In this document: piece after piece, positions 32,095 to 54,357 of the stretch
How the letters are laid out: each line of letters begins with the position of its first letter
Position numbering within the stretch: position 1 is the first letter of the stretch
Origin: a virus
Virus record (IMG/VR): IMGVR_UViG_3300025030_000039
Coordinates: 316,878-380,877 of that record
Direction: 5' to 3' (one strand)
Length of the DNA stretch: 64,000 nt
The notes under the pieces: generated by a model
The model's database searches: none
Told to the model about the DNA's origin: nothing
Seen by the model: only the letters and a program-made list of their open reading frames with translations
Translations under genes and position numbers: made by a program

Positions 32095-32231
32095 TGGCCG
32101 AGAGGGGATTCGAACCCCTGATGTTATCGTGACAAGATAAGACTTTATCCATTTATTCTGTAATAACTTTGAGTCCTATTGAGTAGGTAATTTATAAGTT
32201 ATCTGTGAACTTATTACTAAGCTACTCGGCC
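32095..32231 (-). tRNA. atypical 137-nt tRNA-like gene (Asp-like 3' half, anticodon GUC) with 68-nt insertion after the D arm
   Basis: 5' GGCCGAG TA GCTT AGTAAT AAGT pairs perfectly with the 3' CTCGGCC. The 3' half TTATC TTGTCAC GATAA CATC AGGGG TTCGAAT CCCCT is canonical. The insert contains ACTCAAAGTTATTACAGAATAAA. Confidence 0.45.
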
Positions 32232-32301
32232 ATTTTATCGTCTTTCCGATTGTCATTACATTTTTCCATCTTACGACTTACAGTATAATACTGGTACCAT
32301 T

Positions 32302-33000
32302 TTAAATATTATATTCCTTTTTAAATTCTATTTTTTGTTTTCTATTTTGAAAATCTTTTAATATATTTAAATTTATTAAATCTTCATCTATTAAAATTTT
32401 TAATTTACAGGGAAAATTATTCCATTTTGCTAAATCTTTTAATGTAACGTATCCTTTAATTTCAATATAAATTTTTTCATCTAATAAAAAGAAATCAGGT
32501 CTATATCTTCGAGTTTTTCCTTCATATTCATATTCAAATGTAATATAAGGCCTTTCCCATTTAATATTATTTTCATCTAAATATTTAGCATAAAGATATT
32601 CCCATTTTACTTGTAATTTTATTCCATTATATTCATAATAATTTTTTTTAGAAAAAGATGTATGCCATTCTCCATTTTTTATTCTTTCATTTATTTTATC
32701 AGATATTTTTTGTTTATGTTCTTTTGTTAATTCTGTATTTTTAGAATGATGTTTAAATAATCCTTCTTTTAAATGTTTCGTTAATGTTTCACCACATCTT
32801 TTAACTCTTTCATCAGTATCTTTAGTTAAACCTTTATTCCAAATTATTCTACCTTTTTTATATCCGGCATTAGGATCATGATTTCTACCTTCTCCATGCA
32901 TTTTCCAAATATGTGATCCTATTCCATAAATTGAATATTCTTTATTACATATTAAACATTTACATTTTCCGTTATCTAATTTTACATATTGTTTATCCAT
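32302..33000 (-). CDS. homing-endonuclease-like protein: C2H2 zinc finger plus PD-(D/E)xK-like C-terminal domain
   Basis: CKCLICNKEYSIYGIGSHIWKMH, then WEYLYAKYLDENNIKWER...YRPDFFLLDEKIYIEIKGY (D...E.K). Confidence 0.45.
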   Translation of the reverse strand: MDKQYVKLDNGKCKCLICNKEYSIYGIGSHIWKMHGEGRNHDPNAGYKKGRIIWNKGLTKDTDERVKRCGETLTKHLKEGLFKHHSKNTELTKEHKQKISDKINERIKNGEWHTSFSKKNYYEYNGIKLQVKWEYLYAKYLDENNIKWERPYITFEYEYEGKTRRYRPDFFLLDEKIYIEIKGYVTLKDLAKWNNFPCKLKILIDEDLINLNILKDFQNRKQKIEFKKEYNI

Positions 33001-33064
33001 GATATATTTATTTTATATATCATGTTAACTCTTGTGCTCTAGCAAATGTAATTTATTAAAATTG

Positions 33065-33136
33065 CTGGGATGAAGGGAATCGAACCCCTATCGATGCGTT
33101 AACAGCGCACAGCTCGGACCATTGAGCTACATCCCA
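33065..33136 (-). tRNA. tRNA-Asn (anticodon GUU)
   Basis: TGGGATG TA GCTCAATGGTCCGAGC T GTGCG CTGTTAA CGCAT CGAT AGGGG TTCGATT CCCTT CATCCCA G. Confidence 0.75.
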
Positions 33137-33170
33137 ATATTTATTTTCAATGAACTAATATGTAAATATA

Positions 33171-33184
33171 ATAAAAAAGTAATT
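33171..33184 (-). promoter_or_regulatory. recurrent promoter-like motif upstream of tRNA-Asn
   Basis: TGTAAATATAATAA about 35 nt upstream (gene sense) of the tRNA 5' end. Confidence 0.45.
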
Positions 33185-33230
33185 AATAAAAAAATCCAGC
33201 ATGTCAAAGAACCATTTAAACGAAAAAATC

Positions 33231-33259
33231 CAACTTGTTAGGTTGGATTCTTTAATATT
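33231..33259 (-). terminator. rho-independent terminator (minus strand)
   Basis: AATCCAAC TTGTTAG GTTGGATT followed on the minus strand by TTTTTTCG. Confidence 0.55.
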
Positions 33260-33368
33260 ATTTATATTGTTAACATTAAGCCCAACTCGATTGGATGATA
33301 TTATTATCATCTCTTCTATTGTCTATTATGTTAACTAAATTAATCATGTTCAAAAATTTATTATTATA

Positions 33369-33382
33369 TGCAAATATAATAA
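33369..33382 (-). promoter_or_regulatory. recurrent promoter-like motif (TGCAAATATAATAA variant; gene-sense TATATTTG)
   Basis: Followed (gene sense) by about 100 nt containing only a 23-codon ORF, then the terminator at 33231-33259. This looks like a tiny independent transcription unit. Confidence 0.4.
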
Positions 33383-51881: not shown

Positions 51882-52224
51882 TTTTATTTTTTGAAATTTT
51901 TATTATAACTTTTTCATTTAAATCATTTACATGTTCTAAACTTTTTATATTTAATTTTTTTAAATCTTCAATGTTTTTTATTCCTATTAATTCATTATAA
52001 GCATTAATTTGATCTTCTGATAATGAATTAACAAAATCGATTGATTTTGTTATATGTAATGAAAAATTATAATCTTCTTCTGTTAATATATTTTCACCAC
52101 ATAATGGACATGTTTTATTAATCCAATTAATATAGTCTTCATGTTTAATTGTTTCATCTTTCCAATCACAATTAGGATTATCACATTGTAATCCTTCATT
52201 TATTACTTCTATATTATTTTTCAT
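51874..52224 (-). CDS. hypothetical zinc-ribbon protein
   Basis: CDNPNC...CPLCG. Confidence 0.35.
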   Translation of the reverse strand: MKNNIEVINEGLQCDNPNCDWKDETIKHEDYINWINKTCPLCGENILTEEDYNFSLHITKSIDFVNSLSEDQINAYNELIGIKNIEDLKKLNIKSLEHVNDLNEKVIIKISKNKNA

Positions 52225-52696
52225 TTTTTCTTTTCCATTTTTTAAAAGGATTTCTAGCTAATTCCGCATTATAGTATTTTTTAGTATAACTAACTTCTTT
52301 TTCAATCCAAATAGGTTTTTCAAATTCTTCATTTTCAGATGTTAATTCAATTTCAGCCATAATTAATCCCTCATTATCATCTTCGAAAAAATCAATTTCC
52401 CATTTCTTATCTTTATACATTAAAACAGATCTTGTTTTTTTAATTTTATTTTTACAAAATTTTTCGTATAGTTCAGAACCTTGTTTAAAAGGAATTTCAT
52501 ATTCAATTTCTTCTCGAGATATTCCTTTTACTTTACTTTTAATTGTCATTAATCCAAGACTGCTATCTATTAATCTAACTCTAATAGAACACTCTGAATT
52601 TTTAGATAAATAACCTTGTTTTATTTTATATGATATATCAAAAGATACATTATTAATAAGATCTTTGTTAACTAAAAATTTTCTTTCTATTTCCAT
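52214..52696 (-). CDS. CYTH-domain (triphosphate tunnel metalloenzyme) protein
   Basis: N-terminal MEIERKFLV (the ExExK signature) and about 160 aa. Confidence 0.5.
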   Translation of the reverse strand: MEIERKFLVNKDLINNVSFDISYKIKQGYLSKNSECSIRVRLIDSSLGLMTIKSKVKGISREEIEYEIPFKQGSELYEKFCKNKIKKTRSVLMYKDKKWEIDFFEDDNEGLIMAEIELTSENEEFEKPIWIEKEVSYTKKYYNAELARNPFKKWKRKNEK

Positions 52697-52770
52697 ACGT
52701 GTGTTTAAACAATTAAACCGAACTCACATAGAATTTGGTTTAATAATGGAGATAATTCAACAATTATTTT

Positions 52771-52846
52771 TGGTTGAATGTATCGGATTTGAACCGAAGA
52801 CCCTCTGCTTTTAAGGCGGATGCTCTACCAACTGAGCTAATATTCT
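52771..52846 (-). tRNA. class-I tRNA-like gene with anticodon triplet UAA and encoded CCA (atypical; Lys-like body)
   Basis: ...AGAATAT TA GCTCAGTTGGTAGAGC A TCCGC CTTAAAA GCAGA GGGTC TTCGG TTCAAAT CCGAT ACATTCA A CCA. C-A mismatches in the acceptor and anticodon stems. Followed upstream (gene sense) by the conserved ATTACAGAATAT element. Confidence 0.45.
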
Positions 52847-52929
52847 GTAATAATTATTAGTTCTCCATTATTTTTTATTAATTAAAATATTTATATGCAA
52901 TATTAATAATAATGTTTAAATAATAAAAA

Positions 52930-53736
52930 TTACCAATATTTATAAATATCTCCATCAATTCCATCAACATGTATTTTTAGATTATATGCTTCTTCTAAAG
53001 ACATTATTATTTTTTGCATATCTGCATCATAAAATCCTGCACAAGCAATACTTCCACATTCTACAATTTTCCACCTATATTCACTAAGACATATATCTAT
53101 AGTAAATGCTTTAGCCAATTGAAATATTTTAATCATTTGTTTAACATATTCAATTGCATCATTATCAACTATATCATCATAAGCAATATATGTTCCTCTT
53201 CTATAAGTACTTTGTGTAACTATTTTTCCATCTATTATCCAAAATCTTATTTCTTGAGTAATATTTTTAACAGTTGCTACTTGTAATAAAGTTTCATTTG
53301 TTATAGTCGTTTTAGGTAGTAAATTATTTTTAAAATTTGTCCATTCTTCATATGTAAATACTCTTCCAGTAAATACTTTACTATCTAATGTTGGTCTAAT
53401 AAAATGTTTATCAGAAATCCATTCAAAATCATTTCCAAATTTAACTATTCTAGAATCATAATTAAGTAAATTTTCTTTATAATGTTTAGAATAAACATCA
53501 TAATCATGATTTTTAGTTATTAGAGTGCCTGGAAACCAATTATATTGTTTTGATAATCTAGCTAGTTTTAAAGATCCAAATATAAAAACATCTTCACGAT
53601 CAGTATTAAAATCTAATGTTTCTTTATCATTACTAACATTTATTAATTCATAAGATATATTAAATCTATCTAATGTTTTAATAAGTTTATCATAACCTTC
53701 TTCTCTAAATAAATTTTTTTGTATAATATAATACAT
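52930..53736 (-). CDS. hypothetical protein (possible ATP-grasp-like fold)
   Basis: Weak pattern only (EIRFWIIDGKIVT). Confidence 0.3.
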   Translation of the reverse strand: MYYIIQKNLFREEGYDKLIKTLDRFNISYELINVSNDKETLDFNTDREDVFIFGSLKLARLSKQYNWFPGTLITKNHDYDVYSKHYKENLLNYDSRIVKFGNDFEWISDKHFIRPTLDSKVFTGRVFTYEEWTNFKNNLLPKTTITNETLLQVATVKNITQEIRFWIIDGKIVTQSTYRRGTYIAYDDIVDNDAIEYVKQMIKIFQLAKAFTIDICLSEYRWKIVECGSIACAGFYDADMQKIIMSLEEAYNLKIHVDGIDGDIYKYW

Positions 53737-53824
53737 TTATAGTTAAATATTATTTTTTGAATTTTATATATCTAAATAATATAAAAAAACCTATATAAAT
53801 AAATTATATAGGTTTTTTTGGGGC

Positions 53825-53965
53825 TGGAGGGAGTAGGAATTGAACCTACAATATCAAAACCCTAAATTTTGCGTGTTTACCGTTTTTCTGTAATGACTTT
53901 GAGTTCACCTTTAAAAGATGGTATTGTAAAAGACATAATTGAATTTTTATTTTCACCATCCCTCC
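53825..53965 (-). tRNA. atypical 141-nt tRNA-like gene, anticodon triplet UAG, with about 70-nt 5' insertion containing the conserved core
   Basis: 5' GGAGGGA and 3' TCCCTCC pair perfectly. 3' part CAAAA TTTAGGG TTTTG ATATT GTAGG TTCAATT CCTAC TCCCTCC A. The insert contains TGAACTCAAAGTCATTACAGAAAAAC. Confidence 0.45.
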
Positions 53966-54230
53966 ATGTAATGTTTGTAAAAATTGAGTTAATTAATAAG
54001 ATAAGTTTTTGTATATTTTTTATAACGCTTACAAGCTTTAAGTAATTTAAATAGTTACTACTATGTTGTTTTGAACCTTATCAAAACTTCTAACAAACAA
54101 TGTTTATTAGACTCGCTTTTTATTTGATAAATTATTATCAATTTTTCTGAACTATCTTAGAGTTCTCAATTTTAATCATAATGTTAAAGAACGTATTTTA
54201 CTTTTTAAAGTAAATGTATTTGGCGGGGGA

Positions 54231-54357
54231 ATTCGGGATCGAACCGAAACTGAATGTTTTCAACACATTTGCTCTACCAATTAAGCTTTTATACTGTAAT
54301 AACTTAGAGTTTCTTTTCAGACTAATTTTAAAGTTATAGATGTAAATCTATTCCCCC
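54231..54357 (-). tRNA. atypical 127-nt tRNA-like gene, anticodon triplet UGA, insertion between acceptor and D arm, encoded CCA
   Basis: 5' GGGGGAA TA [62-nt insert with ACTCTAAGTTATTACAGTATAAAA] GCTT AATTGGTA GAGC A AATGT GTTGAAA ACATT CAGTTTC GGTTCGATCCCGAA TTCCCCC G CCA. Confidence 0.45.

Follow-up and report, generated by a model that had tools for sequence, protein, structure and literature searches.

The intervening sequences known from genes of stable RNAs differ in how they are removed. The non-canonical tRNA introns of archaea (Thermoproteales) are short, are spliced by proteins, lie at many sites other than the anticodon and have spread between tRNA genes; the bulge-helix-bulge (BHB) motif consists of two 3-nt bulges separated by 4 bp. 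Bacterial 23S and 16S rRNA genes contain intervening sequences that are removed by RNase III without re-ligation, and the tRNA-Leu gene of cyanobacteria has a group I intron. In bacteria and their viruses, we know of no tRNA introns besides self-splicing group I introns. Group I introns have also been described in tRNA genes of Patescibacteria (PMC13011429), and tRNA genes of Lak megaphages contain introns termed 'enigmatic' (Devoto et al. 2019, PMC6784885 Table S6; bioRxiv 10.1101/356790). The Lak introns are the sole published precedent that we found for the inserts described here, which, as far as Table S6 goes, form a different family. These inserts split four tRNA genes in the D region in a 64,000-nt stretch of huge-phage DNA (IMG/VR record IMGVR_UViG_3300025030_000039, positions 316,878 to 380,877; hereafter the window), and we tentatively read them as protein-dependent introns. 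The window corresponds, at 100% identity, to positions 54150-118149 of LR756500.1, the 462,018-bp genome of an uncultured huge phage, to which all genome-wide counts refer.

The window has a G+C content of 24%, and its minus strand carries every open reading frame (ORF) of at least 150 aa. ARAGORN called 28 tRNAs genome-wide, all at 61-119 kb of the genome; the tmRNA and nearly all tRNA genes lie inside the window. Four minus-strand tRNA genes, none of which was called by ARAGORN with default settings, are each split by one member of a family of related AU-rich inserts of 62-68 nt:

10254..10402, minus strand: locus 1, interrupted tRNA-Tyr(GUA)-like gene of class II, its variable arm being long (from the sequence and from ARAGORN after deletion of the insert); acceptor GAGAGAG/CTCTCTC, discriminator A at 10254
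32095..32231, minus strand: locus 2, interrupted tRNA-Asp(GUC); acceptor GGCCGAG/CTCGGCC, D stem GCTT/AAGT
53825..53965, minus strand: locus 3, interrupted class-I tRNA with anticodon UAG; acceptor GGAGGGA/TCCCTCC, D stem GTG/CAC of 3 bp
54221..54357, minus strand: locus 4, interrupted class-I tRNA, anticodon UGA; acceptor GGGGGAA/TTCCCCC, with G at 54224 as discriminator and a CCA encoded at 54223..54221
10327..10393, minus strand: insert copy 1, 67 nt (boundaries ±2), between tRNA nt 9 and 10
32152..32216, minus strand: insert copy 2, 65 nt, in the D loop after A14 G15 and before U-G18-G19
53883..53950, minus strand: insert copy 3, 68 nt, inside the D loop
54287..54348, minus strand: insert copy 4, 62 nt, between tRNA nt 9 and 10

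All four loci lie within intergenic spacers, and each has a T arm, a variable region, an anticodon arm (5-bp stem, 7-nt loop) and a 7-bp acceptor stem ending in the discriminator. The perfect 7-nt complement of the 3' acceptor strand is located 125-150 nt upstream, with 7 of 7 pairs at 4 of 4 loci. Counting both strands, the 462-kb genome contains each 5' acceptor 7-mer only 5-6 times. Because these G-rich 7-mers are so scarce, the probability of meeting one by chance in a 100-nt interval is ~6×10−4 per locus and ~1.5×10−13 for all four loci jointly. A preliminary description of the window, made from the sequence alone, had called such a coincidence extremely unlikely, and we agree. Its coordinates were right for three loci; locus 4 had been ended at 54231, which loses the 3' acceptor strand, the real end being 54224 followed by the CCA. 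Two loci had been credited with an encoded CCA. Only locus 4 has one, and the other CCA belongs to the complete tRNA 52771..52846. The inserts do vary in position as had been stated, lying at 9/10 in loci 1 and 4 and in the D loop, 3' of the D stem's 5' strand, in loci 2 and 3; none was found 'after the D arm', and the size range of 60-100 nt given earlier narrows to 62-68 nt.

At the gathering threshold, Rfam detected only a partial tRNA match at locus 4 (54230..54290, 38.7 bits, model positions 6-65). At E≤10, locus 2 matched at 32103..32158 (23.7 bits) and locus 3 at 53833..53889 (23.1 bits), in both cases from model position 9. Partial matches that begin right after the insert are the pattern expected of a gene split in the D region. 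We deleted 67, 65, 68 and 62 nt in silico from loci 1-4. ARAGORN then called tRNA-Tyr(gta) of 83 nt with a long variable arm at locus 1, tRNA-Asp(GUC) at locus 2 and a class-I tRNA with anticodon UAG at locus 3, and locus 4 could be read from the sequence as a class-I cloverleaf with anticodon UGA. The exon-exon junctions after deletion are as follows:

Locus 1: GAGAGAGUU / GAGUAUUGG
Locus 2: GCUUAG / UGGAUAAAGUC
Locus 3: GGUGAAA / CGGUAAACACG
Locus 4: GGGGGAAUA / GCUUAAUUGG

Standard tRNA finders miss such split genes, and counts of tRNA genes in huge phages are therefore underestimates. In locus 1, position 33 is A, which is unusual; U is near-universal at this position.

The four loci carry one element, as had been proposed. 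The core TTYTCTGTAATRACTTTGAGT occurred four times at ≤3 mismatches, against 0.03 expected. A shared core of ~22 nt had been recognized before, and it was found again; the homology in fact spans the whole insert, with a mean column identity of 74% over ~60 columns. From 5' to 3', the inserts comprise a linker AAUAAR, the helix strand P0a (UUC or UAC), 4-5 variable nt, the helix strand P1a (AUAACUU, or AUGUCUU in locus 3), a conserved strand UWMAAUWA, the hairpin P2, a conserved strand (G)AACUYNAAG that runs into P1b (AAGUUAU), an invariant UACA, P0b (GAA or GUA) and a 3' linker WAAA (the element ending in ...WAWAAA), followed by the remaining tRNA. Copy 1, for example, reads AATAAA, TTC, AATTT, ATAACTTT, TACAATA and the hairpin TCTAT-GAAA-ATAGA in its 5' half, and ACTT, AAAGCTAT, TACA, GAA and AAAC(T) after the hairpin.

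We compared the structures of five inserts from two genomes, namely the four window copies and one copy from a second phage described below. They share a rod consisting of P0 (3 bp, UWC:GWA), a 4×4 internal loop with UACA as its 3' strand, P1 (7-8 bp, AUAACUU:AAGUUAU), a second internal loop formed by the conserved strands UWMAAUWA and AACUYNAAG, and the capping hairpin P2. P2 forms in all five copies despite a different sequence in each (among them UCUAU/AUAGA, CCUA/UAGG, CAUC/GGUG and UCU/AGA). In minimum-energy folds of the isolated inserts, the complete order P0-loop-P1-loop-P2 was obtained for 4 of 5 and P1 plus P2 only for the fifth. The consensus helix in RNAalifold was P1, in which one pair varies, being A-U in three of the copies, G-U in a fourth and G-C in a fifth. 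P0 shows a double change from UUC:GAA to UAC:GUA, and reads UAU:GUA in the second phage. We conclude that the four split genes are real and that they contain homologous, structured inserts at non-canonical D-region sites.

With cmscan at E≤10, covering the loci and the whole window, the inserts matched no Rfam family, including group I introns, known small ribozymes and Y RNA, and the 3' tRNA parts were matched at loci 2-4. This is the outcome of the model search that the preliminary description had recommended. Its statement that the inserts are too small for group I introns and at a non-canonical site also holds, since they measure 62-68 nt, lie in the D region and gave no RF00028 match at E≤10. 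The known small self-cleaving ribozymes (hammerhead, hairpin, twister, pistol, hatchet and HDV-like) were rejected on the same search, and a likeness of the loops to those of the hairpin ribozyme is superficial and without an Rfam match. A new small ribozyme, whose conserved internal loops would form a catalytic core that cleaves and perhaps re-ligates without protein, is very improbable. The invariant nucleotides do cluster in two internal loops between covarying or variable helices, and the insert size is within the range of small self-cleaving ribozymes. Yet such an RNA would need two precise cuts and a ligation, its fold is very weak, no pseudoknot or tertiary contact is evident, and no Rfam ribozyme family matched at E≤10.

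The element is conserved in a second phage, represented by contig IMGVR_UViG_3300027834_000097 (L019; Ga0209344_10020232, L265, is presumably identical to it). Proteins of the two phages are ~55-60% identical, and the GIY-YIG protein of L019 is 54% identical to that of the window. L019 1490..1622 is a homolog of locus 4 (68% identity) in which the anticodon loop GUUGAAA is kept, the insert follows U8-A9 and the core GUUAUUACAGUAUAA is unchanged. Its acceptor stem is GGGAGGA/UCCUCCC vs GGGGGAA/UUCCCCC in locus 4 (double changes at 4:69 and 6:67), its anticodon stem UUUGU/ACAAA vs AAUGU/ACAUU (27:43 and 28:42) and its T stem GUUGG/CCAAC vs UUCGG/CCGAA (49:65 and 51:63). In this one homolog pair, six compensatory pairs thus occur in three helices with the insert present in both phages, which argues that selection for tRNA structure acts on RNA that spans the insert. 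According to the preliminary description, the pairing would be fortuitous if the distant 7-mer complements disappeared in relatives. They are retained in L019 (GGGAGGA/TCCTCCC vs GGGGGAA/TTCCCCC) with two compensatory double changes. The comparison indicates that the split genes are maintained under selection.

The compensatory pairs also argue against dead genes. On that explanation, mobile DNA of the type of miniature inverted-repeat transposable elements (MITEs) would have entered spare tRNA copies, and the acceptor complementarity would reflect recent insertion. Six double substitutions in three helices between phages whose proteins are only ~55-60% identical are difficult to reconcile with this. 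The intergenic position of the loci, with promoter-like or terminator-like context, likewise speaks against it. The best sigma70-like match of the 52.7-54.5 kb region, at 54420..54391, precedes the 5' exon of locus 4 by ~30 nt, and transcription through the insert from a promoter upstream of this exon is plausible from the sequence. An AT-rich hairpin and then a T run, seen by eye, directly follow locus 3; a consensus terminator scan, which needs G-C pairs, called no terminator there. The interrupted tRNAs are not recent duplicates (identity to any other tRNA ≤72%, the background level). A MITE-like transposon was rejected because terminal inverted repeats and target-site duplications are absent (flanking duplications never exceed 1 nt) and the inverted repeat P1 is internal to the element. 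In favour of dead genes are an intact isoacceptor in the window for each interrupted tRNA, the homing-endonuclease-like genes flanking locus 2, A33 in locus 1, and the class-I bodies with Leu/Ser anticodons at loci 3 and 4. We consider the explanation highly improbable.

Beyond the four full copies, none was found in the 462-kb genome, which contains in addition one half-copy and one degenerate 3' core:

52742..52872, minus strand: leader-trailer unit enclosing the complete class-I tRNA 52771..52846 (anticodon UAA, encoded CCA, Rfam 51.5 bits)
54142..54165, minus strand: sixth copy, a degenerate 3' core (GAACTCTAAGATAGTTCAGAAAAA), in the spacer that separates loci 4 and 3 (nhmmer 10.2 bits)

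The half-copy (52840..52861) had been described as a fifth copy directly 5' of a tRNA. It does lie there, in the 5' leader of this complete tRNA; it comprises only the 3' half of the element and has 5 mismatches to the core. The leader holds ACTAATAATTAT-TACA-G (RNA ACUAAUAAUUAU-UACA-G), with P1b at 52850..52857, and the P1b complement ATAATTGT (RNA AUAAUUGU) is found at 52760..52767 in the trailer, past the encoded CCA. An outer 11-bp helix, AATAATGGAGA (52862..52872) with TCTCCATTATT (52742..52752), surrounds the two halves, and in the minimum-energy fold of the 52742..52872 region the leader is paired with the trailer. L019 835..990 is a homolog of this unit with the same layout (tRNA body 859..931); its acceptor stem has 5 of 7 pairs, with three compensatory changes and mismatches at the same two positions. 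The degenerate sixth copy has a possible partner, AACTATTT, ~110 nt downstream. The same helix sequence recurs at L013 5325..5410 with a tRNA-like body that has the anticodon CAU, a T arm and a weak D region. This body lacks a normal acceptor stem and is closed by a 9-bp helix AAGATAGTT/AACTATCTT (RNA AAGAUAGUU/AACUAUCUU), whose 5' strand is directly followed by TACAG.

The two half-elements thus form a hairpin when inside tRNAs and a helix when around them, and we read the pair as a processing signal. The element would then not be part of the mature tRNA, and its logic would be like that of archaeal BHB sites. In the stretch of ~110 nt bracketed by the sixth copy, GTTTTGATAAGGTTCAAAACAACATAGTAGTAAC at 54054..54087 (minus strand) matched Rfam CRISPR-DR22 weakly (21.5 bits). 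We rejected a CRISPR reading because this sequence is a single copy and no array was found in the 462-kb genome.

A different explanation of the core would be a DNA or RNA regulatory signal, such as a promoter or a 5'-end processing site, that happens to lie in tRNA genes. In two complete tRNAs, 52771..52846 and L019 859..931, the 3' half of the core is immediately 5' of the mature 5' end, and the degenerate sixth copy overlaps a weak sigma70-like match. However, promoter-like matches in the region are at chance level (19 vs 16.6 expected) and none falls on the four full cores, which led us to discard the core as a promoter. An RNA structure is suggested by the compensatory change in P1 and by the variability of the P2 hairpin, and the acceptor 5' strand upstream of the core covaries with the 3' strand. 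The preliminary description had also raised Y-RNA-like mimics. We do not favour them, as the loci have full anticodon arms (unlike YrlA-type RNAs) with sensible anticodons, loci 1-3 can be called by ARAGORN after deletion, no Rfam Y_RNA match or stem of the Ro-binding type was seen, and no Ro/Rsr gene is among the window ORFs. Both the regulatory signal and the mimic are extremely improbable.

Database searches for the core and the insert, which had also been recommended, showed that the element is rare. BLAST of one insert against 50,697 GenBank phages returned LR756500.1 alone. Scans of IMG/VR with the patterns CTCAAAGTYATTACAGAA, AGTTATTACAGWAWAA and ATTACAGWAWAAN{30,60}GGTTC gave chance matches in coding sequence among the matches listed, and a stricter two-box pattern yielded nothing beyond chance matches in IMG/VR or in GTDB genomes. 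A metagenome scan for locus 4 homologs found only the contig already known as L019, and a loose helix-descriptor scan across the genome yielded too much AT-rich noise to be of use. In 13 relatives that carry the neighbouring R2K ATP-grasp gene (59-69% protein identity), there were large tRNA arrays, no copy of the element and no clear uninterrupted ortholog of the four tRNAs (best identity ≤0.71, equal to background). No intronless alleles were found in IMG/VR.

For enzymes that might act on the inserts, Pfam profiling covered all 79 window ORFs of at least 90 aa. The following genes are relevant:

27748..28308, minus strand: Tpt1/KptA RNA 2'-phosphotransferase (Pfam PF01885, E=9.5×10−46; PDB 7kw8, E=8×10−40)
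60173..61129, minus strand: Pnkp-like protein with an N-terminal P-loop kinase and a HAD/PNK3P phosphatase (Pfam PF08645; PDB matches to polynucleotide kinase/phosphatase)
362785..364134 of the genome: RNA ligase, 449 aa (PF09414; best PDB relative the nick-sealing Naegleria gruberi ligase)

The Arg-His-Arg-Arg motifs of Tpt1 are present in the alignment to PDB 7kw8. Tpt1 is possibly an accessory enzyme that removes a 2'-phosphate from the splice junction, and the Pnkp-like protein may possibly heal RNA ends. These healing and sealing genes make splicing chemically feasible without proving it.

To the reading of the inserts as protein-dependent introns we give a probability of roughly 45%. A nuclease that reads the rod would cut them at the A-rich linkers, and phage enzymes would reseal the halves. 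Transcription would start at a promoter located 5' of the first exon and include both insert and tRNA. A putative sequence- and structure-specific endoribonuclease, encoded by the phage or the host, would read the rod via its conserved loops and cleave within both linkers, where the predicted splice sites lie ~7 nt 5' and ~4 nt 3' of the 3-bp helix. The G+C-rich 7-bp acceptor stem would hold the two tRNA pieces together until they are rejoined by the Pnkp-like kinase/phosphatase and the nick-sealing, Naegleria/Rnl5-like ligase, and Tpt1 would act if the junction keeps a 2'-phosphate. The presence of the element at two different sites (9/10 and the D loop) and the leader-trailer versions in both phages count for this reading.

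Several findings weigh against it. The rod is weak (−3 to −8 kcal/mol), so that the structure is backed chiefly by its recurrence and a few compensatory changes rather than by energy, and the covariation comes from five sequences in two genomes. In the full-length context the pair probability of P1 is low in 4 of 5 copies and high (~0.7) only in locus 2, whose full-length minimum-energy fold includes P1 and P2. The folding suggested in the preliminary description yielded a common rod for isolated inserts and, in the complete RNAs, a P1 of high probability at one locus only. The distance from the 5' boundary to P1 varies (~11-15 nt). For each of the four interrupted tRNAs, ARAGORN called another, intact tRNA gene of identical anticodon (an isoacceptor) in the window, so loss of function would be tolerable. 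No tRNA-splicing endonuclease family and no endonuclease candidate were detected by Pfam among the 79 window ORFs, and queries with E. coli RtcB (phmmer), RtcA, RNase III and ThpR gave no match in the genome; a 2H cyclic phosphodiesterase was likewise not detected, by single-sequence search only. KptA, ligases and 2H enzymes are known from jumbo phages, where they are usually read as repair of host-cleaved tRNA (PMC9503650). As such repair sets are common in jumbo phages, their presence is circumstantial for splicing. Finally, no D stem can be drawn in L019 1490..1622 after removal of the insert, and locus 3 has one of only 3 bp, so the rod could stay and replace the D arm.

This last point leads to a retained expansion arm. 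The rod would never be removed, and the mature products would be tRNAs or tRNA-like RNAs of 130-150 nt with an extra protein-binding or structural arm in the D region that partly replaces the D arm. Besides the deficient D stems and the failure to find a splicing endonuclease, this would account for the flexible A-rich linkers between rod and body, for the strong conservation of the loop sequences, as in a binding site, and for full-length minimum-energy folds that keep the acceptor and T arms beside the rod. On the other hand, the two sites would mean two different geometries, insertion at 9/10 cuts through the tRNA core, and in loci 1 and 4 the canonical D arm is complete, leaving the rod nothing to replace. 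As leader and trailer, the half-elements are also found around complete tRNAs. We regard a retained arm as unlikely. The preliminary description had suggested a new class of small tRNA-embedded element, and the inserts are indeed homologous, structured, without an Rfam family and kept in a related phage; of the options it gave, we tentatively prefer the intron to the added arm.

A further option, decidedly unlikely, is an intervening sequence of the rRNA type. A nuclease specific for double strands, e.g. RNase III of the host, would excise the rod, and the tRNA would remain in two pieces held by the acceptor stem, like fragmented 23S rRNA. The rod is helical with internal loops, the leader-trailer helices around whole tRNAs resemble RNase III processing stems, and the interrupted genes, in a genome of 24% G+C, have acceptor stems with 4-5 G-C pairs. 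Homologous copies occur sporadically at different sites, as they do for the intervening sequences of rRNA. The helices, however, are short (3 + 7-8 + 3-5 bp), AU-rich and interrupted, well under the ~20 bp of typical RNase III substrates. A 5' fragment of 9 nt would hang on 7 acceptor base pairs alone, and the phage encodes a nick-sealing ligase.

Compared with the rRNA intervening sequences themselves, the inserts are alike in being sporadic, homologous, helical and placed at different sites of stable RNA genes that still function. They differ in their target, which is tRNA, in their much shorter, AU-rich helices, and in conserved single-stranded loops that suggest sequence-specific recognition. 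With group I introns they share the interruption of bacterial-type tRNA genes and, if they are introns, the need for removal before the tRNA can function, whereas group I introns exceed 200 nt, are self-splicing, have a P1-P9 core and lie in the anticodon loop.

The archaeal introns resemble the inserts in their D-region sites, in homologous copies at different positions of different tRNAs, and in one recognition structure that is used both inside tRNAs and between leader and trailer. Unlike these, the window system is bacterial, as the phage carries a tmRNA, IF3 and a sigma70-type factor. Neither an EndA among the window ORFs nor, with the E. coli query, an RtcB in the genome was detected, and the recognition module appears to lie wholly within the insert. 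A BHB intron was rejected, as no staggered bulges could be drawn at the four junctions by inspection, no dedicated BHB-search tool having been run. The fungal and plant pathway (Trl1 healing and sealing, then Tpt1) is matched by three phage enzymes, a polynucleotide kinase/phosphatase, a Tpt1 whose catalytic tetrad is intact and an RNA ligase dependent on ATP; the ligase, however, is Naegleria/Rnl5-like and not Trl1-like, and no 2H protein was found by single-sequence search.

The Lak introns, as represented in Table S6, also interrupt huge-phage tRNA genes, including Tyr-GUA. They are AU-rich, of 79-114 nt, and in both families the inserts have no Rfam match and are conserved between related phages. 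The Lak inserts, however, lie in the anticodon loop (36/37-37/38) and the window inserts, of 62-68 nt, at 9/10 or in the D loop. In a Lak insert, an A/U linker joins a 5' hairpin to a tRNA-like minihelix whose T loop is the canonical GGTTCGAAT, whereas the window rod has no T loop. The window core is ACUYNAAG-NN-AUUACAG; ATTACAG is absent from the part of the supplement that holds Table S6, and no sequence homology was detected with it. Homology based on the shared strings UACA and AAUAAA gained no support, as the architecture differs. L019 670..830 is a tRNA-Tyr(GUA) gene with an 85-nt insert of Lak-like build in the anticodon loop (5' hairpin, A-rich linker and an 8-bp stem enclosing a T-arm-like hairpin). 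Since L019 also has the D-region rod, these phages carry more than one insert family.

A broader proposal is possible but doubtful: huge phages may carry their own class of small, mobile, protein-spliced tRNA introns, able to occupy non-canonical D-region sites and recognized by an intron-borne rod (UACA and ACUYNAAG loops) rather than by BHB. In its leader-trailer form the rod would also serve to process whole tRNAs; a hypothetical endoribonuclease would cut it, and Pnkp, the nick-sealing ligase and Tpt1 would reseal the RNA. If true, it would provide a natural substrate that yields RNA 2'-phosphates for Tpt1/KptA of the bacterial world. The family would open three questions to direct tests: does the bacterial world have protein-dependent tRNA splicing, on which natural substrate do Tpt1/KptA enzymes of phages and bacteria act, and do the inserts regulate or protect phage tRNAs, e.g. 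against host anticodon nucleases or homing endonucleases?

Other genes of the neighbourhood belong to a set of NAD/ADP-ribose and RNA-repair genes, which includes the Tpt1/KptA, Pnkp-like and RNA ligase genes listed above, or lie among the tRNA genes:

44578..45156: Macro
59596..60072: NADAR
23705..24565: NAD synthase
40362..40772: tmRNA (tag GNNAEMRMAA)
2982..3509: IF3
28887..29327: peptidyl-tRNA hydrolase PTH2
21395..22234: sigma70-family factor

Locus 2 is flanked by the homing-endonuclease-like ORFs 31144..32067 and 32302..33000 (paralogs 62131..62949 and 22562..23662). One has a weak GIY-YIG match. The other encodes a zinc-ribbon protein with a PD-(D/E)XK-like motif (YRPDFF...IYIEIKG) at its end. 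It is conceivable that these ORFs and the insert of locus 2 engage in collaborative homing.

Leu/Ser anticodons (UAG, UGA, UAA, AAG and CAA) were found on class-I bodies of 74-76 nt with short variable loops, namely 53825..53965, 54221..54357 and 52771..52846 in the window, L013 5418..5492, L269 5816..5969 and L268 7414..7489. Such tRNAs recur in the phage clade beside normal Leu and Ser tRNAs with long arms. We dropped the idea that the anticodons UAA, UAG and UGA are stop-codon mimics because the L019 homolog of the UAA tRNA has the anticodon UUU.

A fifth interrupted tRNA gene of the window, 56576..56760 (minus strand), has an unrelated insert of ~110-130 nt, an intact D arm and the acceptor GGTTGTA/TACAATC with one G-U pair; with introns allowed, ARAGORN called it tRNA-Stop(tta) with a 112-nt intron. 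It adjoins a 69-nt tRNA at 56503..56571 with anticodon CUA, which would read UAG, and the pair at 56503..56760 hints at a possible suppression of stop codons. A further tRNA, at 60095..60165 (minus strand), was missed by ARAGORN; it scores 46.6 bits with Rfam and has, by eye, the anticodon GCA.

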